Shown piece by piece: positions 1,112 to 34,270 of a stretch of DNA of 64,000 nucleotides. The stretch spans positions 2,568-66,567 of the forward strand of contig WHTK01000003.1 of the NCBI GenBank assembly GCA_009377745.1, given 5' to 3'. Source of the DNA: Dehalococcoidia bacterium. Lineage in GTDB: Bacteria > Chloroflexota > Dehalococcoidia > DSTF01 > WHTK01. Position 1 is the first letter of the stretch; every line of letters starts with the position of its first letter. The notes beneath the pieces were generated by a model. It was not told where the DNA came from. It searched no databases and saw nothing but the letters and a program-made list of their open reading frames with translations. The translations under genes and the position numbers were made by a program.

Positions 1112-1112
1112 C

Positions 1113-2820: not shown

Positions 2821-2827
2821 AGCCGAG

Positions 2828-17929: not shown

Positions 17930-19378
17930 TCAGCCAACGGTGCCGTTGGCTTCCTGTCCCTGAGACTTGAAGTCGTCCCAGGTGCGCATACCGCGCCACT
18001 CCCAGCGTCGCGCCGCGCTATCGACGCCGCGGTAGATGTTGTGGTCGAAGCGGTTGTTGCCGCCCCACATCATCTCGGGTTGGAAGTCAGCGGCCGCGCC
18101 GCTCACGCCCTCACCAGTGAGGTAAGTAATCGTGTTGTGGTGGACGTGGTTGTTCTGGGTAAGGTGCGGTCCGAACTTGCCGTTACCCCGGTTCTGCTGG
18201 ATCAAGACGATGCCATCGCCGTTGCCGACCTCTACCGTGTTCTGGTATATCTCCACGTTGCTTGAGCCGGCGATCGTAATCTGGCCGCCCCAGAGCCAGG
18301 CGCTGAACCCGTAGCCGTTGCCCTTCACGACATTGTTGCGGATGACGGCGGCGTAGCTGATCTCGTGGAATATGCCCATCCGCTCGTTGTTGATGACCGT
18401 GTTGCCTTCGTAGAGGGTGTTGATGTTGTCAATGTCCGTCCAGAGACCGGGCCCTTTGTTGTCGTGGACGAAGTTGCCACGCACGACCAGACCATCGGTC
18501 AGGACAAACTTTGTGCCGCCCGCTTCCCAGCCAGCGACGACGTTGCGGGTGTTGTTAAAGGCGATCTCATTGTTCTCAATGAGGATGCCGGAGCCTTCGC
18601 CGCCGGTCAGGCCAATCTGCCCGTTGTGGTGGATGTTGTTTGAGACGACCTGCATCCCGGGAGCGAGCCTGATGCCGCCGCCGTAGTTGTTGCGGATCTC
18701 GTTGCCTTCGATGCGCCAGCCGGAGCTCAGGGCGCCGTTGGGCGCCGCCCTGCCGTGGATCGCACCTTGCTGCACCGGGTTCATATACCGCTCGACCACG
18801 AGCCCGCGGATCGTGACATCGCGAGCGCTGCCGTGGAAGGCGTAAAGGCTAACATTCTCGCCATCGAGAATTGCCCCCGGCTCGCCGATGAAGCTCTGGC
18901 CAGCCTTGGGGACAACCGACTGGCGGATGTGGACGCCGGCCCTGATGATGAACGTCGCTCCCTCCGGGTTCGCCGACACCGCCGCCTGGATGTTATCGCC
19001 AGGGTTGATTACTAGCTCGCTGCGTGCCTGCGCGGTGGTTGCCGGTGGGATCGTAGATGGTGGGGGTGTCGCGGACGGTCGCGCCGGAGGCCGTGGTGTC
19101 GCGGTGGGGCCGGGTGTTGCCGCTTGAGCCGACGGTGTGACGCTAGGCGCGACCGGCGGCTCGTCCAGCTGAGGTGTCCAGACCGGCAAAACGAAGGTGG
19201 GCGCGGAAGCAATTTCGTCGCGCAGCTCGTCCGGTGGGACGTCGGCGCCATTTGGCATCATGAAGATGATGGCCAGGACTACGAGAGCTGTACCACCGAT
19301 GGGCAGGAGGAGGCGCCGGATCCGCCCGTGAGCCATCCAACGCCAACACGAGCCAGGCAAGCTAAGAAGGTGCTTCAT
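17930..19378 (-). CDS. membrane-anchored right-handed parallel beta-helix protein (pectate-lyase-fold, PbH1 repeats)
   Basis: N-terminal TM helix, Pro-rich linker, then NPGDNIQAAVSANPEGATFIIRAGVH and NNIHHNGQIG/NNEIAFNN repeats. Paralog of the C-terminal half of the 26066-28096 protein. Confidence 0.6.
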   Translation of the reverse strand: MKHLLSLPGSCWRWMAHGRIRRLLLPIGGTALVVLAIIFMMPNGADVPPDELRDEIASAPTFVLPVWTPQLDEPPVAPSVTPSAQAATPGPTATPRPPARPSATPPPSTIPPATTAQARSELVINPGDNIQAAVSANPEGATFIIRAGVHIRQSVVPKAGQSFIGEPGAILDGENVSLYAFHGSARDVTIRGLVVERYMNPVQQGAIHGRAAPNGALSSGWRIEGNEIRNNYGGGIRLAPGMQVVSNNIHHNGQIGLTGGEGSGILIENNEIAFNNTRNVVAGWEAGGTKFVLTDGLVVRGNFVHDNKGPGLWTDIDNINTLYEGNTVINNERMGIFHEISYAAVIRNNVVKGNGYGFSAWLWGGQITIAGSSNVEIYQNTVEVGNGDGIVLIQQNRGNGKFGPHLTQNNHVHHNTITYLTGEGVSGAAADFQPEMMWGGNNRFDHNIYRGVDSAARRWEWRGMRTWDDFKSQGQEANGTVG

Positions 19379-19509
19379 GCAAGGACTTAAATATGATACC
19401 GGTCAAACCCGCGGGAAACGCGGTTCTGGTGACGATAGGCCGCGTTTGTAATGTCTCGCTAACGATTCCAGGACGACGCCGCCCCGCGCAGCCGTTACAC
19501 TAAGAGGCC

Positions 19510-20841
19510 ATGGGCGCAGTTGGTCAGCTGATCGCCAACCTCGACGTTGAGGACACGGGGCGTGCCCTTCATCAGCAAATCCGAGACCTCTACCCGCTCT
19601 GTCGCAGCATCACGGGCGAAGGCCTGCGCGAGACGCTGCGCTGGATCCAGCGGTCGATACCGCTCGAAGTCCGTGAGGTAGCGACGGGCACCCAGGTCCT
19701 CGATTGGACGGTGCCGCGCGAGTGGAGCATACGAGACGCATATATAGCGGATGCCGCCGGTAACCGCGTCGTCGATTTCAAGCGCCACAACCTCCACGTC
19801 GTCAACTACAGCGCCCCAATATCCGCGCGTATGAGCCTGGACGAGCTACGCCCCCATCTCTACACGCTACCGGACCGGCCCGGCTGGATCCCCTATCGCA
19901 CTTCTTACTACGACGAATCCTGGGGGTTCTGTCTGAGCCACAACCAACTCCTCGCCCTGCCCGACGGCGAATACGACGTCTGCATCGACTCCACTCTGGC
20001 CGACGGCCATCTTTCCTACGGCGAATACGTCATCGCGGGTGAGAGCGCGGAGGAGATCCTGGTCTCGACGCACGTCTGTCACCCGTCGCTTGCCAACGAC
20101 AACCTCTCCGGCACAGTCGTTGCCACTCGGCTGGCGGAGCTGCTGTCGCGAGATCGGCATCGATACACGTTCCGCTTTCTGTTCATCCCGGGGACGATCG
20201 GTTCGATAACCTGGCTGGCTCTCAACAAGCCGCTGCTGGGCAACATCAGGCACGGCCTGGTCCTGGCCGGCGCGGGCGATGCGGGACCGCTGAGCTACAA
20301 ACGCAGCCGCCGCGGAAACGCCGGGATTGACCGCGCCGTGGAGCATGTCCTCAGGCAGCGAGGTAACGAATACCTGATCCGCGACTTCGAGCCGTACGGC
20401 TACGATGAGCGTCAGTATTGCTCCCCCGGCTTCAACCTGCCCGTAGGTAACGTTTCGCGGACCCCGTTTGGCCAGTACCCCGAATACCACACCTCGGCGG
20501 ACGACCCAGACTTCGTCAAGGCCGACGCCCTGGCCGATTCGCTCGCCTTCTGCTTGGAGATACTCCACGTACTGGAGAGCAACGGTCGCCACTTCAACCT
20601 GATGCCGGAAGGGGAGCCGCAGCTCGGCCGGCGCGGGCTCTACGGCCCGATAGGCGGCGCGACCGAGGCCCGCACCTTCCAGATGGCAATGCTCTGGGCC
20701 CTGAATCTCTCCGACGGGTCGCACTCGCTGCTCGATATCGCGGAGCGCGCAGGCATGCCCTTCGGCGTGATCTATGACGCTGCCGAGGCACTCACAGAGC
20801 ATGGATTGCTGAAGCCGTTGCCGCCTGATCAGGATGCCTGA
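19510..20841 (+). CDS. DUF4910 / aminopeptidase-like (M28-fold, COG4310-type) polysaccharide-locus protein
   Basis: QQIRDLYPLCRSITGEGLRETL...VCHPSLANDNLSG matches the conserved DUF4910 pattern seen beside O-antigen/EPS genes. Confidence 0.55.
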   Translation: MGAVGQLIANLDVEDTGRALHQQIRDLYPLCRSITGEGLRETLRWIQRSIPLEVREVATGTQVLDWTVPREWSIRDAYIADAAGNRVVDFKRHNLHVVNYSAPISARMSLDELRPHLYTLPDRPGWIPYRTSYYDESWGFCLSHNQLLALPDGEYDVCIDSTLADGHLSYGEYVIAGESAEEILVSTHVCHPSLANDNLSGTVVATRLAELLSRDRHRYTFRFLFIPGTIGSITWLALNKPLLGNIRHGLVLAGAGDAGPLSYKRSRRGNAGIDRAVEHVLRQRGNEYLIRDFEPYGYDERQYCSPGFNLPVGNVSRTPFGQYPEYHTSADDPDFVKADALADSLAFCLEILHVLESNGRHFNLMPEGEPQLGRRGLYGPIGGATEARTFQMAMLWALNLSDGSHSLLDIAERAGMPFGVIYDAAEALTEHGLLKPLPPDQDA

Positions 20842-21656
20842 TGGGGCCGGGACGTCTCGAGGGCGAGGTCGCAATCATAACGGGAGGTGGGCGTGGCTTC
20901 GGCAAGGCGATTGCCGAGCGGTTTGCGACCGAGGGTGCGGCAGTAGCCATCACGCAGCGCTCCAGTGACCAGCTGGCGCAGACCGCCGCTGCCATAATCG
21001 CCAGCGGTGGCGAAGCCCTGGCGGTTGCTGGTGACGTGACCGACGTGGCGCGTGTTGAGGCTGTCATCGAGGAAGCAGAAAGCCGGTTCGGCCGCGTCAG
21101 CCTGCTGGTGAACGCCGCGGGTGTGGCCGGGCCCTTTGGCCCCTTGTGGGAAGTCGCTCCGGACGACTGGTGGCGCACGCAGGAGATCCATGTCCGGGGC
21201 ACATTCCTGTTCGCCGGCGCGGTCATGCGACGTATGGTGCGCGGAGGTGGCGGCCGGATAATCAGCCTCGTGAGTAACGCCGGGACGCGGGTAAGTACCA
21301 ACGACTCCGGTTACAGTCTGGCCAAGGCAAGCCAGATCCGGCTCATGGAGCTGGCGGCCCAGGAGGGTCGGCCGCATGGCGTAGTGACGTTCGCCGTGCA
21401 CCCGGGCACTGTCGCCACCGAGCTGACTGATTTGATCATTTCCTCGGGGGAGGCACAACAATGGCTGCCGAACCTCGTCGCGCACCTCGACCGGGTCCGG
21501 GAATCGTCCGACGCCGATGCAGGGCTCGCCCGCTGTGCCGCGATGTGTGTCGAGCTTGCTTCCGGGAACTACGATGCCCTGTCCGGGCGCTATCTCGAAG
21601 CGGGCTGGGACCTCGATGCGCTGGCGAAGGAAGCGAAGGGCTCTTCGGGTGCCTGA
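20841..21656 (+). CDS. short-chain dehydrogenase/reductase (SDR family)
   Basis: AIITGGGRGFGKAIA Rossmann motif; YSLAK active-site Tyr/Lys. 1-nt overlap with the upstream gene. Confidence 0.8.
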   Translation: MGPGRLEGEVAIITGGGRGFGKAIAERFATEGAAVAITQRSSDQLAQTAAAIIASGGEALAVAGDVTDVARVEAVIEEAESRFGRVSLLVNAAGVAGPFGPLWEVAPDDWWRTQEIHVRGTFLFAGAVMRRMVRGGGGRIISLVSNAGTRVSTNDSGYSLAKASQIRLMELAAQEGRPHGVVTFAVHPGTVATELTDLIISSGEAQQWLPNLVAHLDRVRESSDADAGLARCAAMCVELASGNYDALSGRYLEAGWDLDALAKEAKGSSGA

Positions 21657-21745
21657 GAGAGCGCAGGCCGGGCAGGTGACAGCTAAGAGCTGAGTTATGC
21701 CACCCCGGGGCTACGCGTCACCACCTTGTGGAGACTACGCCCGTG

Positions 21746-23680
21746 TCACTCCCGCGGTGCGCCGCTAAACACGATCTCGATCTCGCGGTCAATGCGCAGG
21801 TCGGTTTGGAGGCTCGCGCCCGAAGCCGGGTTGCCGTCGAGCGAGATCGAGGTTAGCCGGACGCCCTTGTCGAAGACGGCGTGGACGTCGAGCGGGACGG
21901 CGTCCGTGCCGGCCTGCTTCTGCACATACAGGTTGTAGTGATAGAGGCCGTCTTCGCCCTGCTGTGCGACGCCCGGCGTCTCGTAGAGGAACTGGACGCT
22001 CGCCGTTGCGCCCGGCAGGACCGGGAAGAAACGCCCGAAGACGCGTCTCCCGAGTTCGAGGTCGACCTGCTCCGGCCCGACGCTGCGGCCCTGGAGGCGC
22101 ACATCAAGCAGCCGCGCCTGCTCATGGACGTAGAGACGCAGATAGCAGCCGTAGACGCCGTCCAGCATCAGCGTCTGGACAAGCCGTGGATCGCGGCCGA
22201 TCCGCCACTCAGGAAGCGGGTTCATGATCGTGTAGGTAAGCAGAGAGCGGACGCTGCCGTCTGAGAAGAGCTGCAGGTCGAGCCGGGCGCGGGTCTGGAG
22301 GATCAGGTTTAGCTTTGTGCTGTTCACGCTCGAATCGGCGATTAGGAGGGCGTCGCCATCGGTCTTGGTAAGGGCGCCATCGAAGCTGTAGCCGCGGGCG
22401 AGCGACTGGAGATTGGCGTCATTGAAGTTGAGCTGCAAATGGCGTTCGCGGCCCATCCTGTCGAGCAGGCTCAGCAGGTCCACCCATTGGTCCTTGGGTG
22501 ACGTAAAGATAAGCGTCAAGACAGCGCGCGCCAGATGGGAGAGGAAGGCCTTGCGGGGTGTCCCCGGCACGTAGTCCTCATCCCGCGTCTGCTCCAGGGT
22601 GACCTCCTCCACGTTCTCCGCCGTGACGGTCACGCCGTAGTCTGGCACCGAGACGGGGCCGAGCAGCTCCAGGAGCGCCCGCACAAACTTGAGGTCGATA
22701 GCGATGATGCCATCCGTGGGCGGGGCGCCTCCCTTGGCTACAAAGCCGGCGGCTAGACGGGCGGTGGTTGGGAAGTCCGGGTACCAGCCTGCCTCGCCGA
22801 GGCCCCAGGAGTAGTCGTACTTGAGGTAGTTCTTGAGGGGCGCGGGCGGCTCGATGTACTCGTGGGTCTGGCTCTGCCAGCGGTCGAAGAGGGTGCCGAA
22901 ATACTCCAGGTCCATCGAGACCAGGCGGCCGCCATCGAAAGTTACAATGCCGTAGCTGGAGATTAGGCCGCCGGACGGGAACAGCTCCGTGTTGTTCTGG
23001 GGCAATACCAGATAGCGCCTGGGCCCAGCTTGACCGAGCAGCTCGGGCAGAAGCCCGATGGCGCGATTATAGCCATCGACGAGCGCCTCCAGTCTGGCGA
23101 GGGCGGTATCAAGGTCTGTCGTGGCGCGGTCGAGCGGACCGTAGAGGCCTCCCGGCACCTGCCGGCGAATCGACTGCAGCCTCTGCAACCCCGCCTCGAC
23201 TTCTGCCATGGCGGGTTCCTGGCCCTTCAGGAAGCCGATCGCTTCTTCGATGGAGGTGCGGCCCGGGTCGCGCTCGTAGCGGGCGAAGGCCAGAGCCACG
23301 TCTGTCGCCTGCACGCCGGTCCTGGCGGACTCCTCCGCTGCCGCGACGAGCAACTTCAAGCCATCGACCTGATCTCCGGCCACGGGCAACAGGGACCCAA
23401 GCGTGATTAGCGGATCGGTGCGGACGAAGGCGCGGGCGGCGCCGAGCCGTTCAGCGGCGCGGACGAGGCGCTCGCGCTTTACCAGGATGCCGTCCTCGGA
23501 GTCCTCCAGCTCTGTGATGTCCAGCTCGTCCCTTATCGAGAGCAGGATGTCCTTGCTTTCCGAGACGTCCCGATAAAAGCCGTACGCCCTGTAAGCCTCG
23601 ATCGCCAGCAGGACGAGCGCGAGCAGGATGAGGACGAACGCGACGTGGCTTTTGAGGAGACGCGGTTTTGGGTTCAGCAC
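21746..23680 (-). CDS. DUF4012-like large extracytoplasmic protein with N-terminal TM anchor
   Basis: 644 aa; one N-terminal TM helix (VAFVLILLALVLLAI). Architecture as in actinobacterial DUF4012 cell-envelope proteins; assignment from memory only. Confidence 0.45.
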   Translation of the reverse strand: MLNPKPRLLKSHVAFVLILLALVLLAIEAYRAYGFYRDVSESKDILLSIRDELDITELEDSEDGILVKRERLVRAAERLGAARAFVRTDPLITLGSLLPVAGDQVDGLKLLVAAAEESARTGVQATDVALAFARYERDPGRTSIEEAIGFLKGQEPAMAEVEAGLQRLQSIRRQVPGGLYGPLDRATTDLDTALARLEALVDGYNRAIGLLPELLGQAGPRRYLVLPQNNTELFPSGGLISSYGIVTFDGGRLVSMDLEYFGTLFDRWQSQTHEYIEPPAPLKNYLKYDYSWGLGEAGWYPDFPTTARLAAGFVAKGGAPPTDGIIAIDLKFVRALLELLGPVSVPDYGVTVTAENVEEVTLEQTRDEDYVPGTPRKAFLSHLARAVLTLIFTSPKDQWVDLLSLLDRMGRERHLQLNFNDANLQSLARGYSFDGALTKTDGDALLIADSSVNSTKLNLILQTRARLDLQLFSDGSVRSLLTYTIMNPLPEWRIGRDPRLVQTLMLDGVYGCYLRLYVHEQARLLDVRLQGRSVGPEQVDLELGRRVFGRFFPVLPGATASVQFLYETPGVAQQGEDGLYHYNLYVQKQAGTDAVPLDVHAVFDKGVRLTSISLDGNPASGASLQTDLRIDREIEIVFSGAPRE

Positions 23681-23714
23681 GGGCTACGGCCGCGCGCCGA
23701 TAGCGCATCGAGTG

Positions 23715-24365
23715 TCACAGTTGCTTTGCGAGATCCGGCTGAGCCTGCAACAGCAGCGCGCCGAGGCACTGGAGCAGGAATTCGCTGAGCAGTCCTTGCT
23801 CCGCCATAGCGCGAAGCTCGGGCAGAGTGGCGGCGTAGTAGCCGCCGGCGATCTCGGGTTGCCCCGTTAGCCGCACGGTCTGGATGCGATTCCTTTTCTC
23901 GAAGAACATGCCGGGGTCCTGAGCCACGCTGAAGGAGTCCTCACCTACAAGCGCCGCGTAGGGGATGTCTTCGCCGCGCAATCGTTCGACACCGGCCTGG
24001 ACGGTGGTGGTGACCAAGATGCGGCCGGGAGTGTCGCTACCCGGCTCCTCTTTGGCCTGGACGAGAAACTTCAGCTCGTGCTCGGCGTCCTGCCAGTAGA
24101 CGAGGGCGATCTCAGCGTGTGGTTTGGCGATGGGATGGATGAGGAAGAGAGACGGCCAGGACCGGCGAGGGCTCTTTGCCTGGACAAGGATGCCCTCGTG
24201 ACCGGCAGCGGGGTTCCAGAAGTGGGCGCTCTCCTGCCGCCAGCCGGTGCCATCGAGAGACTCCTGGCGTCTCAAGGACTCGATGCCCTTCTCGCGCCGT
24301 TGGGTCGCCAGCCACTGTTGCATCCCTGTCACCGCGCCGGACCTCCGGATTCCATGGACTGCCAT
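23715..24365 (-). CDS. hypothetical protein
   Basis: 216-aa ORF with coding-like composition; no recognisable motif. Confidence 0.3.
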   Translation of the reverse strand: MAVHGIRRSGAVTGMQQWLATQRREKGIESLRRQESLDGTGWRQESAHFWNPAAGHEGILVQAKSPRRSWPSLFLIHPIAKPHAEIALVYWQDAEHELKFLVQAKEEPGSDTPGRILVTTTVQAGVERLRGEDIPYAALVGEDSFSVAQDPGMFFEKRNRIQTVRLTGQPEIAGGYYAATLPELRAMAEQGLLSEFLLQCLGALLLQAQPDLAKQL

Positions 24366-24493
24366 GCCAGGCGTTTGTAATGCCGGTAACGTACTCGCAA
24401 GGCAGGATTGCCTGTATTATGAGCGATACAGCCTCGCCGTAACGTCTCTCAGGCAGGATTGCCGGGTAATATGAGAGAAACGGCTTCGAGCGC

Positions 24494-24982
24494 GTGGGAA
24501 AGGACTCCTTTGTGCGTCTCGCCTTTGTCTTGACCTTCGCCCTGATCAGCCTGAGCCTGAGCTATATTCCACAGGCGAACGCCCAGTACGGGCCTTCTCG
24601 CGGCCGCCTGGTCTGTGAGCTGAACGGCCAGGTTACGGGCAATAGTGTCCAGATAACTACGACGCTTCAGGACACGGACGGCGATGGGGTCTCCGGCCAG
24701 AACATCAACTTCACGGTGCTGGGCGGCTCCGGCGGCCAACTCGACCCGCCGTCCGACGTCACGGGCAATAACGGCGAGGCAAGCGTCACGCTGTTCACGG
24801 ATGGGCCCGGGCAACTCATTGTGCGTGCGACGACCAACAACCAGGTCGCCTGTGATATGACCGTCCTCACCCAGGAGGTCGCGGGCGTGGTCGAGGTTGC
24901 CCCGGTAGCCGAAGTTGCAGAGGTCTCCAACATATTCACGCCGCCGATCGTCGGCGATGCGGGTCTCAAGCCCTCCCAATAG
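24494..24982 (+). CDS. secreted Ig-like (Big/invasin-type) domain protein
   Basis: Signal peptide AFVLTFALISLSLSYIPQANA; ITTTLQDTDGDGVSGQNINFTV..GNNGEASVTLFTDGPG is typical of bacterial Ig-like domains. Confidence 0.45.
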   Translation: MGKDSFVRLAFVLTFALISLSLSYIPQANAQYGPSRGRLVCELNGQVTGNSVQITTTLQDTDGDGVSGQNINFTVLGGSGGQLDPPSDVTGNNGEASVTLFTDGPGQLIVRATTNNQVACDMTVLTQEVAGVVEVAPVAEVAEVSNIFTPPIVGDAGLKPSQ

Positions 24983-25059
24983 CCGAGCTGATTCAGCGAC
25001 AGCCGGAGCGTAAAGATCGTGGATCGGCGCGCTGCTGAGGTGCGCCCGCGGCTAAGATT

Positions 25060-25983
25060 CTATTTCGTCTGGAGATAGAGTGACGCTGGGAAGTGCCCCG
25101 GCGAATCGCGAAAGACGCGCCTGCCTTCCATCAAGCCGTCCCTATGGGGAGCCGGCTGGTACTCGGGGAACACCTCTTTCAGAGCCTCGGGCCGTTCGTA
25201 GTGAAGCTGGCTCATGCAGAAGAGGATGTCGACCTTCTCGTTGAAGGCCAGGTAGGCGCGGACCAGCGCCGGCTCGCTCCAGTGGTAGAGCGTTTGCAGG
25301 GTGTCCGGTTGGTAATCGAAAGGGAAGGCGATGTCATGGATGTGAATCGTTACCCCGGGTGGTAGGCGCGGCAGAACCTCCAGATAGAGGAAGTTGACGT
25401 CGCTGCCCGGCTTGACGATGTGCGAGGAGTCGATGAAGAGGAAATCGCCGGGACCGAGGCTGATGAAGGGGGCGAGGCCTACCTCCTGGACGGGGCTGGC
25501 GATCAACTCCACGGAGTCGAGGGCCCGCAGGGCGGCCGAAGGGTAGGGCTCAATCGAGGTGATCTTGCCGGCCCCGTTCCGCTCCAGCGCTTTGTGCATG
25601 CAGAAGGTTGAGACGCCGCTCCCCACCTCCACAATCCTGCCCGGCTTCAGGGCGCGGATCACGCCGTGCAGCGCCTGAGCCTCGATGTAGCCATATCCGG
25701 GGCCGAAGTGATGCTCGACTGCCTCTCGGAAGGCGGTGTTGCCGGCGTACTCGTCGCGGAATGGGGCGCAAAGGCTGGCCATCGCCTGCACCTGAGCGTC
25801 GAGATCGATGCGAAGGCCCGGCATTTCGGACTTTTGCGCCCAGACGGAGCGGGTCCGCTCCAGATCAGGCAGCTTAACGACGGGCGAGTAATAGTTGGAG
25901 GGTACGATATCGACGCCGATACGCTGAGCCAGCTTGTGAGCGCCGATAATCGCATGCTTCAGACGATCGGAGACGGATGGCAT
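25060..25983 (-). CDS. class I SAM-dependent methyltransferase (macrocin-O-MT / cephalosporin-hydroxylase-like fold)
   Basis: GRIVEVGSGVSTFCM glycine-rich SAM motif; LFIDSSH; in the glycan locus. Confidence 0.55.
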   Translation of the reverse strand: MPSVSDRLKHAIIGAHKLAQRIGVDIVPSNYYSPVVKLPDLERTRSVWAQKSEMPGLRIDLDAQVQAMASLCAPFRDEYAGNTAFREAVEHHFGPGYGYIEAQALHGVIRALKPGRIVEVGSGVSTFCMHKALERNGAGKITSIEPYPSAALRALDSVELIASPVQEVGLAPFISLGPGDFLFIDSSHIVKPGSDVNFLYLEVLPRLPPGVTIHIHDIAFPFDYQPDTLQTLYHWSEPALVRAYLAFNEKVDILFCMSQLHYERPEALKEVFPEYQPAPHRDGLMEGRRVFRDSPGHFPASLYLQTK

Positions 25984-26065
25984 GCCCGCGGATTATACCA
26001 GACCGGGTTCGAGTGTAATCCCCGGACGTGACCGTCCCTGGGTCACGTCCGGGGCGGGCCTCGGT

Positions 26066-28096
26066 TTAGTGCAGCGCAGCGCCGGCGATTTCTTGCCCCT
26101 GATTACGGAAGCCATCCCAATTGCGCATGCCCTTCCATTCCCAGTAGATGCGGGAGGGATCGGCCACCTTGTAGGTGTTGTGGTCGAAGCGGTTGCCGCC
26201 GTTGAACATGGCGTCCGCCTGGTAGTCCGCGGCCGCGCCACTCATGCCGCGCGTCCCCAGATACACGATCTGGTTGTGATGGACGTAGTTGCCGGTGGTC
26301 AGGTGCGGGCCGTGGGCGCCGGAGCCGCGGTTCTGCTGCACCAGACCGATGCCGTTACCGTAGCTGGCCGACACTTCGACCTTGTTGTTGTAGATCTCAA
26401 CATTGCGCGACCCGGCGACCAGGATCTGGGCGCCCCAGAGCCAGGCAGACTGATCTGACCCGTTCAGCCGCGACACGTTGTTCTTGATCACGGCGTCATA
26501 GCTGATCTCGTGGAAGATGCCTATGCCTTCATTGCTGAAGACCGTATTGTCGTCATACGTGGTGTGGATGTTGTCGATGTCCGTCCAGAGGCCCGGACCT
26601 TTGTTGTGATGGACGCTGTTGCCGCGGACGACGAGCCTTGTGGTGAGGACGAACTTTGTGCCACCGGCCTCCCAGCCGGAGTTGAAGCCGGCGGTGTTGT
26701 TGTAAGCGATCTCATTGCCTTCGATGAGGACGTCCGCGCCCTCACCGGCGATGCCGATCTGGCCGTTGTGGTGGATGTTGTTGTTGATGGCCTTCATCTG
26801 GGAGCCGGTGCGCAGGCCGGCGCCGTGATTGAAGCGGATATCGTTGTCCTGCACGACCCAGCCACTGCTTAGAGCGCCGTTTGTCCCGTCCTTGGCCTGA
26901 ATAGCGCCATGCTGAGCCGGGTTCGCGTATTTTTCGATGACGAGGCCACGGATCGTGACGTTCTTTGCCTTACCGACGAAGGCGTGGCGCGTGACGCTCG
27001 CCTCCACCTTGTGGCCCGTTGGGTTATCGGCCATGTAGATCCTGTCCTTGGCGTAATCGAAGTACCATTCTCCGGCGGAAAGGCCGCTCAGGCTCGTTAC
27101 CTGCCACAGCGGTTGATCATCGATGAAAAGGCCCTCCGGGTACATACAACCCGTGTAGCCGGAGACACAGGCGCCGTGCGTCTGGCCCTGCTGCGTCTGG
27201 CCGGTTGCCACCCAGTAGCTGCCCGACCTTGTAAACGAGACCAGCTTGGCGCCACTGAGGACCGCGCCGGACTCGCCCACAAAGCTCTGTCCGTCCTTGG
27301 GTGTCACCTGCTGCAGCCGATGGACGCCGGGCTTGAGGACAAATGTGGCGCCTGTAGGATTCGCGTTGACGGCCGACTGAATGTTAGCGCCAGGCTGAAT
27401 GACCACGCCGGACGTTGATGGCGGGGCGGGCGACGGAGATGGGGTGGGTGTTGGGCTGGGGCTCGGCTTGGGAGCCGGGCTGGGCGGCGGAGTGGGGGTC
27501 GGGCTTGGCTTAGGGGCGGGAGGTTGGACCGGTGGCGTCGTACCACCCACTCTGGTGCCATCGTCGATCGTCGAGAAATCGGCCACCCAGTAGTAGTCGT
27601 AGCGTGAAGGGCCGAAGTAGGCGCGCGCGATGCCGATCTGGCGGTAAGACTTGCTCAGCATTGCGCCCCTGGCGCTGCTGGAGCTCCCCCAGCTGTTAAA
27701 GACCTGCGTAGCGCTGCTCCAGCTTGTGCTTGCCCCGATAATCTCGGCGGTGAGCGCATTGGATGGCAGGCCGCAGTCCTGCATCCGTGTCCGCGAAGAT
27801 CGCTTCAGTGAGTCCTTATGGGAGAAGTAGTTCCTGCGGGACATATCGTTGGCCAGCCAGGATGCCGAGCGGTGGAGGTTGGCGGAGATGGTGAGCGCCG
27901 GGGCGCCAGTCTGTGCCCGATAGCTGTTGATGAGGCTGAGCAGCTCCTCCTCCTCGTCGTCGAAATTGAGGTATACATCGCAGTTGTTGAGGGCGTAGGC
28001 AGTATCAAAGCCGCCGCGACTAACGGTGCTTGAAGCGAGCATGATGATTGCGAGGCTGAGGGCACCGAGGGCACGGGGGAGCGCAGATCTGGGCAT
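26066..28096 (-). CDS. secreted CAP (SCP/PR-1) domain protein fused via Pro-rich linker to a right-handed beta-helix domain
   Basis: Signal peptide; CAP motifs LINSYRAQ...HRSASWLANDMS...YFSHKD...YWVADFS. PSPTPTPPPSPAPKPSP linker. The beta-helix half is highly similar to the 17930-19378 protein, including the C-terminal WEW.GMR.WD.F..QGQE. Confidence 0.65.
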   Translation of the reverse strand: MPRSALPRALGALSLAIIMLASSTVSRGGFDTAYALNNCDVYLNFDDEEEELLSLINSYRAQTGAPALTISANLHRSASWLANDMSRRNYFSHKDSLKRSSRTRMQDCGLPSNALTAEIIGASTSWSSATQVFNSWGSSSSARGAMLSKSYRQIGIARAYFGPSRYDYYWVADFSTIDDGTRVGGTTPPVQPPAPKPSPTPTPPPSPAPKPSPSPTPTPSPSPAPPSTSGVVIQPGANIQSAVNANPTGATFVLKPGVHRLQQVTPKDGQSFVGESGAVLSGAKLVSFTRSGSYWVATGQTQQGQTHGACVSGYTGCMYPEGLFIDDQPLWQVTSLSGLSAGEWYFDYAKDRIYMADNPTGHKVEASVTRHAFVGKAKNVTIRGLVIEKYANPAQHGAIQAKDGTNGALSSGWVVQDNDIRFNHGAGLRTGSQMKAINNNIHHNGQIGIAGEGADVLIEGNEIAYNNTAGFNSGWEAGGTKFVLTTRLVVRGNSVHHNKGPGLWTDIDNIHTTYDDNTVFSNEGIGIFHEISYDAVIKNNVSRLNGSDQSAWLWGAQILVAGSRNVEIYNNKVEVSASYGNGIGLVQQNRGSGAHGPHLTTGNYVHHNQIVYLGTRGMSGAAADYQADAMFNGGNRFDHNTYKVADPSRIYWEWKGMRNWDGFRNQGQEIAGAALH

Positions 28097-28468: not shown

Positions 28469-29455
28469 CTAGGTGTAAGACATGACTTTCTCTGTGCTCA
28501 ACACCTGCTGCTCGATCCACTCATAGGTGCGGCCCAACCCCTCCTCAAGCGAGATCTTAGGTTCCCAATTGAGGACCTCGCGCAGCAGCGTGTTGTCGGA
28601 GTTGCGGCCGCGGACCCCCTCCGGCCCGACGACGTGCTTCTTGGCGACTTCCAGGCCGGCGATTCCGCCGATGATGTCCGCGAGCTCGTTGATACTGATC
28701 ATCCGGTCCTGACCGAGATTGATCGGTTCTTGCCAGGCGGATTGCATCAGCAGCACGAGGCCCGTAATGCAGTCGTCGATGTAGCAGAAGGACCGCGTCT
28801 GCTCGCCATCGCCCCAGATCTCGATTTCGGAGTTGGCGGCTCGCTTTGCCACGGCGATCTTGCGGCAAAGGGCGGCCGGGGCCTTCTCGCGTCCACCATC
28901 CCAGGTGCCCAAGGGGCCGAAGATGTTGTGGAACCGGACGATGCGGGTGTCCATGCCGTAGTCCTGGCGGTAGTGCATACAGAGCCGCTCCGTGACCAGC
29001 TTCTCCCAGCCGTAGGCATCCTGCGGCTGGGCAGGGTAGGCGTCCGCTTCCTTGAGGGGCGCAACGTCTGTGCCTTCCTGGAGGTACTCCGGGTAAATAC
29101 AGGCTGACGACGTGTAGAGCAGCTTGCCCACGCCCTTCTGACGGGCGGCCTCCAGCGTGTGAAGATTGATCAAGGCGTTGTTGTGGAGAATTTCGGCATG
29201 GTGGGCGGAGATGAAGCCCATGCCGCCCATATCGGCCGCTAGCGCCCACACCTCGTCCATTCCGTCTGCCGCCGTCAGGTTGTTCTCCCAGACACGCAGG
29301 TCAAGCTGGAGGAACTCGTCGGCGCGGGTGTCTTGAAACTGCGGCAGCTTGATGTCCACACCGCGGACGAAGTAGCCGTCGTCTTTGAGACGGTTGACGA
29401 GATGGTGGCCGATGAAGCCACCGGCGCCCGTTACAAGTGCACGTCTTGCGGTCAT
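28469..29455 (-). CDS. GDP-mannose 3,5-epimerase-like NAD-dependent epimerase (GME family)
   Basis: Collinear motifs with plant/bacterial GME: GAGGFIGHH, LAADMGGMGFI, SSACIYPE, QDAYGWEKL, RFHNIFGP.GTW.GGREKAPAA.CRK, GPEGVRGRNSDN. Confidence 0.75.
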   Translation of the reverse strand: MTARRALVTGAGGFIGHHLVNRLKDDGYFVRGVDIKLPQFQDTRADEFLQLDLRVWENNLTAADGMDEVWALAADMGGMGFISAHHAEILHNNALINLHTLEAARQKGVGKLLYTSSACIYPEYLQEGTDVAPLKEADAYPAQPQDAYGWEKLVTERLCMHYRQDYGMDTRIVRFHNIFGPLGTWDGGREKAPAALCRKIAVAKRAANSEIEIWGDGEQTRSFCYIDDCITGLVLLMQSAWQEPINLGQDRMISINELADIIGGIAGLEVAKKHVVGPEGVRGRNSDNTLLREVLNWEPKISLEEGLGRTYEWIEQQVLSTEKVMSYT

Positions 29456-29503: not shown

Positions 29504-30163
29504 TTAGTAGGCGCCGTCACCTGTGAGGACAGCGGGGATGGTCTTGAGAAGAATCCTGGCGTCCATGAGGAATGAACGCTTCTCCGCGTACTCGAGATCG
29601 AGGCGGAGCATTTCTTCAAAGGAGAGGTTGCTGCGCCCGCTGACCTGCCACAGACCGGTAAGCCCGGGCCGGACGCTGGCGCGAAGCTCCATCTGTTCCT
29701 TCAGGCCTTCGATCTCCCAGCCGAGGAGAGGGCGCGGCCCAACGAGACTCATATCGCCCCGGACTACATTCATTAGTTGCGGCAGCTCATCCAGGCTGTA
29801 GCGGCGCAGGATGCGGCCGCTGCGCGTAATGCGCGGGTCGACGTTGCGCTTCTGGAGCGGGCCAAAGCCGGCCTCACGAAGCACCTCCGCCGGGATCTTG
29901 TCACTGCCTTCGCGCATGGTCCGGAACTTCAGCATCGTGAAGGGAGACATGTCTCTGCCGGGCCGCTGCTGGCGGAAGAGGATTGTGCCGGGCGAGTCAA
30001 GGCGGATAAATAGCGCGATAGCGGCCATGATCGGCGACAGGGCGGCGAGCAGGAAGCCGGCCCCGCAGATGTCCACGATCCTTTTCACGGCATCCTGCAG
30101 CGGCTTTGGACGGGTGGGTTGACGCAGGAGAATGATCTCTTCCATCGCTGTCTCGCTACTCAT
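29504..30163 (-). CDS. polyprenyl-phosphate sugar-1-phosphate transferase (bacterial sugar transferase family; priming glycosyltransferase)
   Basis: KRIVDI..A...L..SP.......IRLDSPG...FRQQR.G......MLKFRTM....D...........D.R.T..G..LR..SLDELPQL.NV..GDMSLVGPRP is the Bac_transf C-terminal catalytic core. One TM helix. Confidence 0.8.
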   Translation of the reverse strand: MSSETAMEEIILLRQPTRPKPLQDAVKRIVDICGAGFLLAALSPIMAAIALFIRLDSPGTILFRQQRPGRDMSPFTMLKFRTMREGSDKIPAEVLREAGFGPLQKRNVDPRITRSGRILRRYSLDELPQLMNVVRGDMSLVGPRPLLGWEIEGLKEQMELRASVRPGLTGLWQVSGRSNLSFEEMLRLDLEYAEKRSFLMDARILLKTIPAVLTGDGAY

Positions 30164-31085
30164 CTGAGAAAGCGCCTATCGTCTCTTCGAGACCGCTGCG
30201 AAGGCTTCTATGTGGTTCCCAGCCGAAACGCTCCCGCACGCGTGTGATGTCAGGACAGCGCCGGTATGGGTCGTCCACGGCTGCCGGTAGGAAGTCGTAC
30301 TTCGCCTCGACACCGAGCAGCGACGCGACGGTCTCCGCCAGCTCGATCATAGTAACCTCTTCCGGGTTGCCGAGGTTGAACACCTCCCCGTTAGCGCTGG
30401 AGTCCTGAGCGACCTTCAATAGACCATCGACAAGGTCCGAGACGAAGCAGAAGGAGCGCGTCTGCTGGCCCGTCCCCTGAATCGGGAACGGCTTGCCGCT
30501 CAACCCGGCGCCGATGAATGCCGGGATCACGCGGCCATCCAGCGGGTCCATGCGCGGGCCGTAGGTATTGAAAATCCGCACGATGCCGACGTTGGCCCCG
30601 CGCGTCCGCATCGCCATGGCGAGCGCCTCGCCGAAGCGCTTTCCCTCGTCATAGCAGGATCTCTCGCCGATTGGATTGACGTTGCCCCAGTACGACTCGG
30701 TTTGAGGGTGCTCCAGGGGATCGCCGTAGACCTCTGAGGTGGAGGCGAAGAGGAGCCGCGCATCGGCCTCGATGGCGCGTTCCAGCAGCCGTAATGTCCC
30801 CAATGAGTTGGCGAGGAGGGTTTCGACCGGCTTGGCCCTGTACTGAACGGGGCTGGCAGGCGACGCCAGGTGGAGCACGAAATCGGCCTCGAAGGGCGGC
30901 GGGGCCGTGACGTCTGCCTGGACGAATCGGAAGTTAGGCCGGCCGGTCAGGTGGGCAACGTTGCGCTCGCGGCCGGTCAGGAGGTTGTCAAGGCAAAGGA
31001 CCTCGTGCCCCTGCGCCACCAGCGTCGTGCAAACGTGGCTGCCGATGAAGCCGGCGCCACCGGCGACAACGAAACGCGTTGTCAC
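30156..31085 (-). CDS. UDP-glucuronate decarboxylase (UDP-xylose synthase)
   Basis: GGAGFIGSH, DNLLTGR..N, ASPASP, STSEVYGDP..HPQ.E.YWG.VNPIG.R.CYDEGKR, RIFNTYGPRM...DGRV match UXS. 4-nt overlap with ugd. Confidence 0.85.
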   Translation of the reverse strand: MTTRFVVAGGAGFIGSHVCTTLVAQGHEVLCLDNLLTGRERNVAHLTGRPNFRFVQADVTAPPPFEADFVLHLASPASPVQYRAKPVETLLANSLGTLRLLERAIEADARLLFASTSEVYGDPLEHPQTESYWGNVNPIGERSCYDEGKRFGEALAMAMRTRGANVGIVRIFNTYGPRMDPLDGRVIPAFIGAGLSGKPFPIQGTGQQTRSFCFVSDLVDGLLKVAQDSSANGEVFNLGNPEEVTMIELAETVASLLGVEAKYDFLPAAVDDPYRRCPDITRVRERFGWEPHRSLRSGLEETIGAFSDE

Positions 31086-32443
31086 GGCTGGCTGACGCTC
31101 GCGTGGAACTGGCCTTCGTGAGTGATCGGCCGGCCCATACCCTGATAGATGCCGCCGACGGCCTCGACATGCTCCCGCTTGAGAATGTTGCGGCCGTCAT
31201 AAACATAGCGTCCCGGCATGCTGGCGAGTACTTCGGCGAAGTCGACCTGAGTGAACTCGGGCCAATCCGTCAGGACAGCAAGGGCATCGGCGCCCTTGAC
31301 CGCATCAATGGCATCTTCGGAGAGCAGGACAGCGTCCTCCAGGTCACCGTCGGTGACCTGTGATGGGTCGTAGGCCTGAATCCGCGCGCCCTCGTTCTGG
31401 AGCAGCCGGATCACATCGAGCGCCGGTGACTCGCGCAGGTCCTCGCTGCCGCCCTTGAACGTGATGCCCCAAACGGCGATAGTCCGGCCCTCCAGGGTGC
31501 CCAACGCCTGGCGCAGGCACTGGACGGCGTGCCGGCGCTGGCCAAGGTTTATTTCCTGGACGGAGGAGAGCAAGCGCATTGAGATGCCGGCCGAATCGCC
31601 CGTGTAACAGAGCGCGGCGACGTCCTTCGGGAGGCAGCTGCCGCCATAGCCGATGCCGGGCTTGAAGAAGTGCTGGCCAATCCTGGGGTCCATGCCGGCC
31701 CCCGTCACGATGGGGTCGACGTCCAGATTGAGCGCCTCGCAGAGACGGGCGATCTCGTTGACGAACGAGACGCGCGTCGCCAGATAAGCGTTCGATACGT
31801 ACTTGATCATCTCGGCGGAGCGCAGGTCCGTCATGACCAGGGGAGCATCGATGCCCTCGTAGAGCTGGGCGACGGCCTGGGCGTTCACCTCGGAGTCGGC
31901 CCCAATCACGATCCGATCAGGGTGGAAGAAGTCGTAGACCGCGCTGCCTTCGCGGAGAAACTCGGGGTTGGCGACTATGCCGGAGTGGCCGTTGTCCTGG
32001 GTGATGAAGGTGCTGAGGATGGCATCGATCCTCTCCCCCGTACCGATGGGAGAGGTGCTCTTATTGATGATGATGGGCTGGCGGCCCCTCGTCGCAAGCT
32101 CTTCGCCCAGGGCGGCCGCGGCCATGCGGACGTAGCGAATGTCCGGCGCGCCGGTGGCAGTGGGCGGCGTGTTCACGCAAAGGAAGACGAACTTTGCCTC
32201 GCGCAGCGCGTCCGTGTAGGAAGTTGTGAAGGTCAGCCTGCCTTCAGCAAGCATCTGGGAGGTGAGTTCGGGAAGGCCGCGTTCGAGGAAGGGGACCGAG
32301 CCACGCGATAGCTGTTGGACGAGGTCAGGATTCTTATCGATACCGACGACCTGATGGCCAAGGCTCGCCATACCGGCGGCCGTGACCAGACCAACGTGGC
32401 CGCAGCCTACAACGGCAATGGAGGATGGAGGGCAAGCCTGCAT
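31082..32443 (-). CDS. ugd: UDP-glucose 6-dehydrogenase
   Basis: IAVVGCGHVGL N-terminal NAD motif; GGSCLPKD catalytic Cys motif. The start is placed at the second ATG, which has a GAGGAA RBS. Confidence 0.85.
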   Translation of the reverse strand: MQACPPSSIAVVGCGHVGLVTAAGMASLGHQVVGIDKNPDLVQQLSRGSVPFLERGLPELTSQMLAEGRLTFTTSYTDALREAKFVFLCVNTPPTATGAPDIRYVRMAAAALGEELATRGRQPIIINKSTSPIGTGERIDAILSTFITQDNGHSGIVANPEFLREGSAVYDFFHPDRIVIGADSEVNAQAVAQLYEGIDAPLVMTDLRSAEMIKYVSNAYLATRVSFVNEIARLCEALNLDVDPIVTGAGMDPRIGQHFFKPGIGYGGSCLPKDVAALCYTGDSAGISMRLLSSVQEINLGQRRHAVQCLRQALGTLEGRTIAVWGITFKGGSEDLRESPALDVIRLLQNEGARIQAYDPSQVTDGDLEDAVLLSEDAIDAVKGADALAVLTDWPEFTQVDFAEVLASMPGRYVYDGRNILKREHVEAVGGIYQGMGRPITHEGQFHASVSQP

Positions 32444-32784
32444 TTCCTCACGGTTCATGGATAGGATCAAGAACAGTGAACCGCGCAGGCAGAGTGGGGG
32501 AATAACCTACTTGAACAGCAAAGCTTCATCGGGGACCGCCTCCTTGCATCCGGACTGCCGATAGAAACGGACTTAACCCGGCTCCCAGCGCTTATAGTTC
32601 GTCAACTTTATCGATGTTCATCTGTCAAAATTGATGCAAGCCCTGTTTTGGCATTGCGAAGGTGTAACGGAACCGGCCGCAGGCGTGCCGGGACTCTCTA
32701 CGGGCGACGAGAATGTAACTTGTGACGGACACGGGCCTACCGGCTGGGCATGCCCTTGCGGGGCCCAACCGGCCCAGGGCATAT

Positions 32785-32840
32785 TTGACCTCCCAGGTAA
32801 CGATCCGTACAGTCAGAACGATCCTACAGTCAAGGAGAGA
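32785..32840 (+). promoter_or_regulatory. candidate promoter plus tandem 16-nt direct repeat immediately upstream of the wzz-like gene
   Basis: TTGACC-17-TACAGT, then AACGATCCGTACAGTCA / AACGATCC-TACAGTCA direct repeat, then AAGGAGAG RBS. Confidence 0.3.
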
Positions 32841-32842
32841 CG

Positions 32843-34270
32843 ATGGAGTTCAGAGATTACGTCGGCTTTCTTAGCCGCCGCTGGCTGCTTTTGCTGCTCA
32901 TCCCCGCGACCGCGCTCATCGTGACGTATCTGTGGTCGCGACAGCTGACGCCGATATATGAGTCCACGGCAACGGTGCTGCTGGTAAACCAGGTCCAACC
33001 GGATGCGGTGACGTCCCAGGTCAATGACCTGCTAATCGACGAACGGCTCATTCAGACTTACGTTGAGCTGATCGAGCGCCGTCCCGTCCTCGCTGCTGTG
33101 GTGCAGGAGCTTTCTTTGCCCATGACAGCAGAGGAGCTGGCAGAGCAAATATCGGTGGCGAATGACGTGCAAACGCAGATCATCCGCATTACTGCGCATG
33201 ACAGTAACGCCTCCCTGGCGGCGGACATGGCCAACACGACGACGGCTGTATTCATCGAGCAAACGGAGACTGACATTGGCCGGCCCGGGACCGTGCGCGT
33301 TGCCGAGCCGGCGGTGGCCGCAAGGACGCCCGTCGAGCCGAATCTGCCCTTGAATCTGATCCTTGCCGGCTTCGTCAGTTTGATTGTCAGTATCGGCCTG
33401 GGGCTTGTCCTGAACTACCTCGATAGCACAGCCAGAAGCCCGGAAGACGTCCAGGCCGCGTCCGGTCTACCTCTACTCGGCATGGTTTATCGCGTCCGCC
33501 TGCGGCCGCGGCAGGGGATGGAGGACTTCGGATTATGGGCGCTCGCGGAGGACTATCGCGGCCTGCGCGCGAAGCTCGATTCGGCGCGGCAGCACTCGGG
33601 CCTCAAGTCCTTACTGATCGTGAGCGAGAATGCAGGTGAGGGGCGCTCGATTACAGCGGCGAACCTGGCGTTGTCCCTCGCCCAGGCTGGCGAGAATGTG
33701 GTCCTGGTGGACGCTGATTTGAGACGGCCTCACCTGCACGAGCTCTTCCAGGTACCAAACGCGGCCGGGCTCGCCGCCGTACTCAATGGACTCACCGGCT
33801 TCACGGAAGCGCTGGAGACCACACGCTTTGAGAACCTGATGTTGTTGCCGGCGGGCACGCCGCAGCCGAACCAGGCGGAGAAGCTCTCCTCCAGAATGAT
33901 GGCGGAGCTGATAGAGCACCTGACGGGCTCGGGCGACATTATCATCTTTGATTCGCCGCCGATGTCCGCCTTCGCCGACGCGAGCATCCTCGCCGCAAAG
34001 GTGGACGCTTCAATTCTGGTCGTCGAATCGCGCCGGACCAGGGCGAGCGAGATCCGCCAGTCGGTCGAGAGATTGAGCGGGGCCAAGGGTGGCATTATCG
34101 GCGTTGTGGTCAACAAGGTACGCGGCCGTCGCGACGGGAGGCCCTATCAGCATTGGCGCCAGAGCAGCCGCGGCACGGACGCCCAGACGCCGGCGCGGGC
34201 GCCGGCCACGCGCCGTTTTCGAAGGAATGAATCACGCGCCGTTGGCTCCCCCCAGGAAGAGAAACTCTGA
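32843..34270 (+). CDS. polysaccharide co-polymerase (Wzz-like) fused to CpsD/BY-kinase-like P-loop ATPase domain; Walker A Lys replaced by Arg
   Basis: N-terminal TM helix plus periplasmic Wzz-like region, then a second TM helix. Walker A-like VSENAGEGRSI, Walker A' VVLVDADLRRP, Walker B DIIIFDSPP. No C-terminal Tyr cluster. Confidence 0.7.
   Translation: MEFRDYVGFLSRRWLLLLLIPATALIVTYLWSRQLTPIYESTATVLLVNQVQPDAVTSQVNDLLIDERLIQTYVELIERRPVLAAVVQELSLPMTAEELAEQISVANDVQTQIIRITAHDSNASLAADMANTTTAVFIEQTETDIGRPGTVRVAEPAVAARTPVEPNLPLNLILAGFVSLIVSIGLGLVLNYLDSTARSPEDVQAASGLPLLGMVYRVRLRPRQGMEDFGLWALAEDYRGLRAKLDSARQHSGLKSLLIVSENAGEGRSITAANLALSLAQAGENVVLVDADLRRPHLHELFQVPNAAGLAAVLNGLTGFTEALETTRFENLMLLPAGTPQPNQAEKLSSRMMAELIEHLTGSGDIIIFDSPPMSAFADASILAAKVDASILVVESRRTRASEIRQSVERLSGAKGGIIGVVVNKVRGRRDGRPYQHWRQSSRGTDAQTPARAPATRRFRRNESRAVGSPQEEKL

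Follow-up and report, generated by a model that had tools for sequence, protein, structure and literature searches.

We examined a stretch of 64,000 nucleotides from contig WHTK01000003.1 of Dehalococcoidia bacterium assembly GCA_009377745.1 (hereafter the window), in which two genes that we call BH1 and BH2 encode paralogous right-handed beta-helix proteins at the edge of, and within, a partial exopolysaccharide (EPS) locus. Our favored reading, to which we assign a probability of about 0.5, is that both are extracytoplasmic, locus-encoded glycanases, most likely retaining glycoside hydrolases (GHs) with a site like that of family GH120, which trim the surrounding Wzy-type EPS; that they cleave glycans in one way or another is considerably more probable. 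What is new here, and in our view a solid lead, is a widespread EPS-locus beta-helix family with a GH120-like residue cluster, present in this genome as a putatively membrane-stalked short form (BH1) and a uniquely CAP-fused long form (BH2).

Two paralogous beta-helix proteins

A preliminary description of this DNA had taken the open reading frames (ORFs) at 17930-19378 and 26066-28096 for paralogs, and BLASTP bore this out: BH1 and BH2 are 62% identical over 307 aa (E=3e-131), with a second aligned segment, the 88-aa N-terminal cap, at 47% identity (E=4e-18). Identity of this extent is far beyond chance and confirms the paralogy. The two segments are separated by about 80 BH2 residues that have no counterpart in BH1. 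Both proteins, which were assigned to a Dehalococcoidia metagenome-assembled genome (MAG) on a contig of 186 kb, had also been called beta-helices, as is now supported by Pfam Beta_helix (PF13229; 82.4 bits for BH1 and 58.2 bits for BH2, against a cutoff of 25.9) and by high-confidence AlphaFold2 (AF2) models, in which the predicted local distance difference test (pLDDT) score exceeds 95 for BH1 residues 121-482 and BH2 residues 231-676, including the BH2 insertion, which is modeled as eight short strands. The architecture proposed for BH2 (signal peptide, CAP/SCP domain, PT-rich linker, beta-helix) also held up, given hydropathy, linker composition and a Pfam CAP match (PF00188) at residues 53-174 (51.3 bits, cutoff 21.1, E=2.5e-13). 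The beta-helix of BH2, described earlier as its C-terminal half, in fact runs from residue 231 to residue 676 and so makes up about two thirds of it. While the C-terminal motif WEW.GMR.WD.F..QGQE is common to both proteins just as first described, the shared N-terminal motif had to be reworded from its N.GDNIQ form, since BH2 reads QPGANIQ; the correct form is PG.NIQ.AV.ANP.GATF.....GVH. The hydrophobic segment near the BH1 N terminus coincides in part with a helix modeled at low confidence (residues 30-39). The two genes and their parts are as follows.

17930..19378, minus strand: BH1 gene (GEU75_02330), 482 aa, 100% match to MAG protein P0001
19256..19312, minus strand: BH1 hydrophobic segment, residues 23-41, signal-anchor or signal peptide (Kyte-Doolittle maximum 2.53 at residue 23, RIRR before it)
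19019..19201, minus strand: BH1 Pro/Thr/Ser-rich disordered linker, residues 60-120 (29% Pro, 24% Ser+Thr; pLDDT from below 50 to about 75)
17933..19018, minus strand: BH1 right-handed parallel beta-helix without insertion, residues 121-482 (AF2 pLDDT >95)
26066..28096, minus strand: BH2 gene (GEU75_02365), 676 aa, 100% match to MAG protein P0121
28016..28096, minus strand: BH2 signal-peptide-like N terminus, residues 1-27, MPRSALPRALGALSLAIIMLASSTVSR (hydropathy; modeled helix 6-22)
27575..27958, minus strand: BH2 CAP/SCP (YkwD-type) domain, residues 47-174 (Pfam CAP E=2.5e-13)
27407..27541, minus strand: BH2 PT-rich linker, residues 186-230 (39% Pro, 30% Ser+Thr; pLDDT <50)
27251..27406, minus strand: BH2 N-terminal cap coils of the beta-helix, residues 231-282 (47% identical to the BH1 122-181 region; pLDDT about 98)
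26996..27250, minus strand: BH2 beta-rich inserted subdomain, residues ~283-367 (81-aa insertion, not in BH1)
26069..26995, minus strand: BH2 main beta-helix body, residues 368-676 (62% identical to BH1)

A conserved candidate active site

When the sequence was arranged coil by coil and the Asn ladder was set apart, the other invariant residues aligned on one sheet over consecutive coils. In BH1 numbering these are R237, Q254, W284-E285-x4-K290, W313-T-D315, H338-E339, S341-Y342 and R397. The preliminary description had allowed for a purely structural or adhesive role should the groove residues prove unconserved; what we found is that five of them are kept in 204 to 211 of 211 family members, K290 and W313 in all 211, D315 in 210, E339 in 209 and E285 in 204, with W284 present in 199. 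Every residue of the cluster is retained in both BH1 and BH2, which argues against such a role. The candidate catalytic coils lie at these positions.

18362..18526, minus strand: BH1 W284-E285-x4-K290, W313-T-D315 and H338-E339 (conserved in 199-211 of 211 members, one sheet register)
26507..26671, minus strand: BH2 W475-E476-x4-K481, W504-T-D506 and H529-E530

In both the identity and the spacing of its residues, this cluster resembles the active site of the GH120 enzyme XylC of Thermoanaerobacterium saccharolyticum (PDB 3vst). The XylC site consists of Glu353, Lys358, Trp380, Asp382 and Glu405, and the mutants E353A, K358A, W380A, D382A and E405A are all inactive; Asp382 is the nucleophile, hydrogen-bonded by Lys358, and Glu405, 4.9 Å away, is the acid/base (PMC3507262). 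The Glu-to-Lys spacing is 5 in XylC and in the BH family, Lys-to-Asp is 24 and 25, and Asp-to-Glu is 23 and 24, respectively. Counted from the first Asn of each coil, the five residues fall at offsets 15/20/10/12/12 in XylC and 15/20/11/13/13 in the BH family, and the three coils measure 32-23-23 and 32-24-23 residues. XylC has a nine-residue Asn ladder and a sandwich domain inserted after residue 75 that supplies Trp113 (PMC3507262); BH2 and most of its relatives carry a domain inserted at what looks like the same point of the helix, of 81 aa in BH2 compared with 125 aa in XylC, while BH1 has none. The proteins differ in setting, as XylC is a cytoplasmic, tetrameric exo-xylosidase of xylo-oligosaccharide catabolism, whereas BH1 and BH2 are secreted or anchored and encoded in EPS loci. 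The BH family also differs from XylC in having a long conserved groove, which suggests binding of a polymer, and equivalents of XylC His360 and Arg450 are not evident in it.

Association with exopolysaccharide loci

The genes around the pair are listed here in order of position.

19510..20841, plus strand: DUF4910/DUF2172/HTH_47 (M28-like) protein, divergent from BH1
20841..21656, plus strand: short-chain dehydrogenase
21746..23680, minus strand: DUF4012 membrane-anchored protein
23715..24365, minus strand: 216-aa protein with a weak match, below cutoff, to nucleoside-diphosphate (NDP)-hexose 2,3-dehydratase
24494..24982, plus strand: secreted Big_1 (Ig-like) protein
25060..25983, minus strand: Methyltransf_24 methyltransferase, 82 bp downstream of BH2
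28469..29455, minus strand: NAD-dependent sugar epimerase/reductase, GDP-fucose-synthase-like below cutoff, with a 372-bp gap to BH2
29504..30163, minus strand: small polyprenyl-phosphate glycosyl-1-phosphate (priming) transferase (Bac_transf 211 bits; EPS_sugtrans)
30156..31085, minus strand: nucleotide-sugar enzyme of the extended short-chain dehydrogenase/reductase (SDR) type, decarboxylase/dehydratase-like
31082..32506, minus strand: UDP-glucose/NDP-sugar 6-dehydrogenase (TIGR03026 433.8 bits, cutoff 189.8)
32801..34270, plus strand: Wzz-type co-polymerase fused to a BY tyrosine autokinase, divergent from the minus-strand run

BH1 stands alone as a gene: on one side an Amidase_2/SpoIID/LysM gene converges with it, and on the other the DUF4910 gene is divergent from it. 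The pair had been said to bracket the locus; BH1 does stand at its left edge, but BH2 lies inside it, with EPS genes continuing beyond to 34270. The label UDP-xylose synthase (UXS) for the 30156-31085 protein found no confirmation, as the protein scored below all NCBIfam cutoffs, and with it a link from xylose to a xylosidase was dropped. A tblastn count of such genes in 19 of 50 related loci was likewise discarded as unspecific, because the query cross-hits other SDR epimerases.

Among four neighborhoods of relatives that we read gene by gene, three were EPS loci with a second paralog adjacent: a Nitrospirales locus (Wza, Wzz, two beta-helix genes, a GT4 glycosyltransferase, Wzy and a sulfotransferase), a Gemmatimonadaceae locus (two paralogs, then GT4) and a Bryobacteraceae locus (GT4, nucleotidyltransferase, methyltransferases, SDR and DUF4910, Wzy, FkbH and two paralogs). 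We also surveyed 50 genome loci, each 15 kb or longer, for features within 10 kb of the family gene, with core EPS markers detected by tblastn. At least two core markers were present in 26 of the 50 and a Wzy homolog in 23, and about 21 carried two to four beta-helix copies.

Two side observations concern gene partners in these loci. The Wzy_C-type polymerase near family genes (loci L007-L083) is 27-47% identical to that of the Nitrospirales locus and lies within 1.3 kb in 7 of 23 cases; such conservation, unusual for Wzy proteins, hints at a conserved partnership of Wzy and beta-helix protein. No Wzy homolog was found in the window itself. The DUF4910/DUF2172/HTH_47 gene adjoins an SDR gene both in the window (19510-21656) and in the Bryobacteraceae locus (L005, 4052-6083), and the two may form a conserved sugar-modification gene pair.

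Alternative interpretations

Several observations weigh against a GH120-like hydrolase acting on a Wzy-type EPS. The equivalence to XylC residues rests on spacing and published residue numbers rather than on superposed coordinates, and no sequence match to XylC/GH120 (3vst) was found at E up to 10 by phmmer with single sequences or with three profiles; the sequence similarity that would indicate GH120 was looked for and is absent, so membership of BH1 and BH2 in that family is not established. BH1 has no insertion, the XylC counterpart of which is essential for activity. As to the locus, what the preliminary description called a glycan-biosynthesis locus is indeed linked to polysaccharide synthesis but amounts to only part of an EPS locus: the whole 64-kb window lacks any glycosyltransferase, Wzx or Wzy, and the rest of the pathway must therefore lie elsewhere. 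The occurrence of at least one core EPS marker in 36 of the 50 surveyed loci is to be read as an association and not as an enrichment over random genes. The UDP-sugar 6-dehydrogenase of the locus leaves room for a uronate polymer and lyase chemistry. Finally, the sole PDB sequence matches are to AlgE-type mannuronan C5-epimerases. Nothing relevant came from PDB sequences when BH1, BH2, the core of BH2 or either of two full-length profiles of the family served as the query, but a profile cut to the catalytic coils (A3) matched AlgE4 (2pyg; E=1.6e-5, 27.9 bits), a weak and repeat-driven hit, followed by 8ja4, 8xfq and 5lw3 at about 6e-3 (hits to 7e-3) and AlgG at about 0.2.

These last points are the substance of an alternative that we consider unlikely, namely that BH1 and BH2 are polysaccharide lyases (PLs) or C5-epimerases of the AlgE/AlgG, PL6 or RbmB kind acting on a uronate EPS, with K290, H338 or Y342 as the base and the acidic residues binding or neutralizing the substrate. 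Its significant matches are to AlgE4, AlgE6 and the A-modules of alginate epimerase/lyases, the catalytic D178 of AlgE4 aligns with D315, and the dehydrogenase makes uronic acid a probable constituent of the polymer. AlgE4/AlgE6 and AlgG (2pyg, 5lw3, 4nk8) are the nearest solved structures by profile and among the top fold hits; their active site occupies the same coils as the one proposed for the BH family, and they, too, work on the cell's own exopolysaccharide or are encoded alongside its genes. The catalytic motif YG(F/I)DPH(D/E) of AlgE and AlgG is nonetheless absent, no DPH occurs anywhere in BH1 or BH2, and the AlgE loop bearing Tyr149, Asp152 and His154 aligns with E-A-G-G-T-K-F in the BH family, which offers no counterpart of the Tyr or the His. 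Conversely, the invariant E339 has no AlgE counterpart and aligns with a Val of AlgE4, and the RTX R-modules of AlgE are missing from both proteins. In PL6 enzymes, which also have a Ca2+ site of Asn, Glu and Glu, the catalytic Lys is partnered by an Arg on the adjacent coil, where the coil after K290 in the BH family has W-T-D instead. Furthermore, of 77 related loci only 5 have a UDP-glucose 6-dehydrogenase homolog no farther than 10 kb away, and no sequence relationship to PL or GH28 families was found for BH1 or BH2. We conclude that the candidate active site is located as in AlgE4 and XylC, with residues of the GH120 hydrolase type and not of the epimerase or lyase type. Thus, of the earlier suggestion of depolymerases or lyases, or else adhesins, the preference for an enzyme over an adhesin stands, while a lyase or GH28-like type gives way to a residue pattern that points to a retaining, GH120-type hydrolase.

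Non-catalytic surface proteins, such as adhesins or EPS-binding scaffolds like PfbA whose groove binds glycans or host or matrix ligands, appear improbable to us: the Ig-like, SLH and lectin modules of relatives are also typical of surface structural proteins, and BH1 does without the subdomain that XylC needs, but near-absolute conservation of Lys, Asp, two Glu and Trp across phyla, with all of them kept by both paralogs, is typical of catalysis rather than of mere binding. More improbable still is that BH1 serves not the EPS locus but the adjacent contractile-injection or phage-tail-like gene cluster as a depolymerase akin to a tailspike or fiber. That cluster encodes a sheath, a tube, a spike and a baseplate J protein and lies 4-17 kb upstream of BH1, which is itself abutted by the endolysin-like amidase/SpoIID/LysM gene. 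PHROG searches at E up to 1e-3, however, gave no match for BH1, which is encoded on the opposite strand and has a putative membrane anchor of its own; its closest relative is BH2, from inside the EPS operon. Relatives elsewhere are found at EPS loci, and the four neighborhoods read contained no called tail genes.

Two further candidate identities were rejected. A phage tailspike or capsule depolymerase assignment for the pair was set aside because neither beta-helix has a PHROG match and both genes lie outside the tail-like cluster. NosD was likewise dismissed (26.4 bits for TIGR04247, which has a cutoff of 300, and no nosZ, nosF, nosY or nosL nearby); Pfam NosD was above cutoff for BH1 only, at 37.4 bits.

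In function, the BH pair would resemble locus-encoded depolymerases such as VexL, RbmB, AlgL and PslG, and in mechanism it would be most like GH120. VexL, a PL1 endolyase for Vi antigen encoded in Burkholderiales capsule loci, provides a precedent for a locus-encoded beta-helix depolymerase (PMC6003464). As is proposed for the BH pair, VexL and RbmB, the lyase of Vibrio polysaccharide (VPS), are exported beta-helix depolymerases for the cell's own surface polysaccharide and do not serve catabolism. They differ in belonging to other families, in Arg/Lys-based beta-elimination, in being single-copy, in having neither CAP domain nor membrane stalk, and in their diderm hosts. A paper on sporangium-matrix hydrolases of Actinoplanes mentions no beta-helix enzymes.

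Distribution of the family and probable loss of the inserted subdomain

A search with the BH1 core retrieved 2172 clusters at E<1e-5, and none of the matches listed bore a functional name. Its members come from phyla of soils and sediments (Gemmatimonadota, Nitrospirota, Acidobacteriota, Actinomycetota, Chloroflexota, Planctomycetota and Alphaproteobacteria), with Methylobacterium (such as M. marchantiae), Humitalea (H. rosea), Hansschlegelia (H. zhihuaiae) and Dankookia among the cultured carriers. Relatives are fused to ricin-type lectin, NPCBM, CBM6, LamG, PKD, Big_2, SLH, CARDB and RTX modules, the typical decoration of extracellular carbohydrate-active enzymes.

The insertion, present in 163 of the 211 members and missing in 47, has its own near-invariant residues (W295, C310, C317, W344, D347 and E365). 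By parsimony on a neighbor-joining tree of these members, the long form is ancestral and the insertion was lost about five times. In terms of distance, no sequence is nearer to BH1 than BH2, and the clade of 55 members to which BH1 belongs contains no other short form; the reading that fits best is therefore an old duplication of a BH2-like gene, followed by loss of the subdomain in BH1. In XylC the inserted domain walls the -1 subsite; by analogy, its loss should open the BH1 cleft, and a division of labor between the paralogs (exo and endo, or tight and loose) is a reasonable idea. A tblastn-based sorting of the paired copies at other loci into long and short forms was discarded, because high-scoring segment pairs split at the insertion and a known long form was mis-scored.

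As a separate observation, some proteins of 947-989 aa (Nitrospirales locus L001, 7646-10489; proteins P0122-P0124) contain two family beta-helix modules in tandem. In L001 they directly follow a single-module paralog and are flanked by Wza, Wzz, GT4, Wzy and sulfotransferase genes.

The CAP domain of BH2

The fusion of CAP and beta-helix, which had been called unusual, proved rare by every count made: no other CAP-carrying protein was found among the 120 best BH2 homologs, no CAP domain was detected within 10 kb in the 77 related loci, and no beta-helix was seen in the seven longer CAP relatives, the only long hits scanned. An exhaustive HMMER search yielded 6413 relatives of the CAP domain at E below 1e-3, where a word-indexed search had given only one close relative. 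The seven longer ones are fused to PKD, fn3, Big_1, DUF4082 or PPC domains or have no second domain. The nearest CAP relatives, at about 50% identity, share one modular template of signal peptide, CAP domain, DDGT motif, PT-rich linker and variable C-terminal domain. BH2 thus shares the layout of its nearest YkwD-type CAP/SCP relatives, none of which was seen to carry a beta-helix, and represents new cargo on a modular CAP-linker-X scaffold, a new combination and not a new principle.

In NCBIfam the domain matches the YkwD-type model TIGR02909 at E=5.5e-16, below its cutoff. It keeps the Cys pair C39/C108, H93 and E118, but the near-invariant His of GHNxNML is replaced by Ala (the motif reads ARGAML), which leaves the His/Glu set of the cavity incomplete and suggests that cavity function is altered or lost. 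The domain did not fold in AF2, where CAP alignment depth was almost nil. The NCBIfam hits lead to one characterized protein only, DalA, a CAP/SCP lipoprotein that binds peptidoglycan (PMC10470522), whose model BH2 matches at 34 bits against a cutoff of 200; by analogy, tethering of BH2 to the cell wall by its CAP domain may be considered, as a lead only.

An identical 676-aa BH2 ORF is present in an independent Logan assembly of run SRR10173838. This second assembly makes a chimera joined at the PT linker unlikely, even though both assemblies probably come from the same reads. In another Dehalococcoidia bin of this run (Dino_bin15; L003, 19089-20027), a stand-alone CAP protein of 312 aa is encoded 7.4 kb downstream of a family member that adjoins a GGDEF/EAL gene, so in that relative the CAP and beta-helix are separate genes.

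Proposed mechanism and implications

The paralogy, the fold, the conserved residues, the tie to EPS loci and the rarity of the fusion are observed, whereas hydrolase chemistry, the roles of single residues, the substrate and the task of the CAP domain are inferred. If BH1 and BH2 are indeed retaining glycanases, the polymer would lie along the sheet that carries R237, Q254, K290, W313, D315, E339, Y342 and R397. D315 (D506 in BH2) would be the nucleophile, kept charged by K290 (K481), and E339 (E530), one coil on, the general acid/base, with E285 and W313 binding the -1 sugar. The insertion of BH2 and most relatives, with its conserved Trp residues, would close the site on one side, a part played in XylC by the sandwich domain with Trp113; in BH1 this wall would have gone by a lineage-specific deletion, giving a more open cleft. 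The cell is probably monoderm; BH1 would be held at its surface by the membrane anchor and Pro-rich stalk, and BH2 perhaps by the CAP domain on its PT-rich linker, which may bind the cell wall, a weakly supported step.

Glycanases encoded in such loci set the chain length of EPS and govern its release and remodeling. To our knowledge, they are well studied only for a few synthase-dependent polymers (alginate, Pel, Psl, cellulose and VPS) and for one ABC-dependent capsule, that of VexL. Should the family prove to be a GH120-like hydrolase associated with Wzy-type EPS loci of Chloroflexota, Acidobacteriota, Gemmatimonadota, Nitrospirota, Actinomycetota and Alphaproteobacteria, it would constitute a new CAZy-type family, provide enzymes for dissecting uncharacterized soil EPS, and offer a handle on why loci retain several paralogs. 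The CAP fusion adds a small clue to what CAP/SCP domains do in bacteria, which is poorly understood.

A broader scheme, which we put forward tentatively and think somewhat doubtful as a whole, would join these elements: an unrecognized GH family of more than 2,000 members, related to GH120 at the clan level, would be dedicated to self-made, Wzy-dependent EPS in soil and sediment phyla, typically with at least two paralogs per locus whose walled long and open short clefts would have complementary exo and endo, or chain-length-setting, activities, and the CAP domain of BH2 would have been recruited as a wall tether. Were this true, bacterial CAP domains would gain a concrete role in envelope anchoring.

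A neighboring tail-like gene cluster

The contractile-injection or phage-tail-like cluster occupies positions ~368-13500 of the window on the plus strand. Its recognizable genes, and the protein encoded between it and BH1, are as follows.

368-1111, plus strand: Pvc16_N protein
1047-2348, plus strand: tail sheath
2296-2820, plus strand: gp19-type tube
4502-6154, plus strand: GPD/Phage_base_V spike
6420-9527, plus strand: Baseplate_J protein, 1035 aa
11136-11990, plus strand: PG_binding_1 protein
16440-17888, plus strand: single 482-aa protein with Amidase_2, SpoIID and two LysM domains (PHROG endolysin-type hits)

Several further ORFs of the cluster had no Pfam or PHROG match. Since no capsid or terminase genes were seen in it, the cluster may be an extracellular contractile injection system rather than a prophage. 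A single chain, the 16440-17888 protein, carries both an amidase and a lytic transglycosylase of the SpoIID type. Beside the cluster there is also a second paralog pair, formed by the divergent ORFs at 14318-15127 (minus strand) and 15286-16356 (plus strand), which have no family match; they share an N-terminal domain of 123 residues (41% identity, E=2e-24) that is followed by hydrophobic segments.

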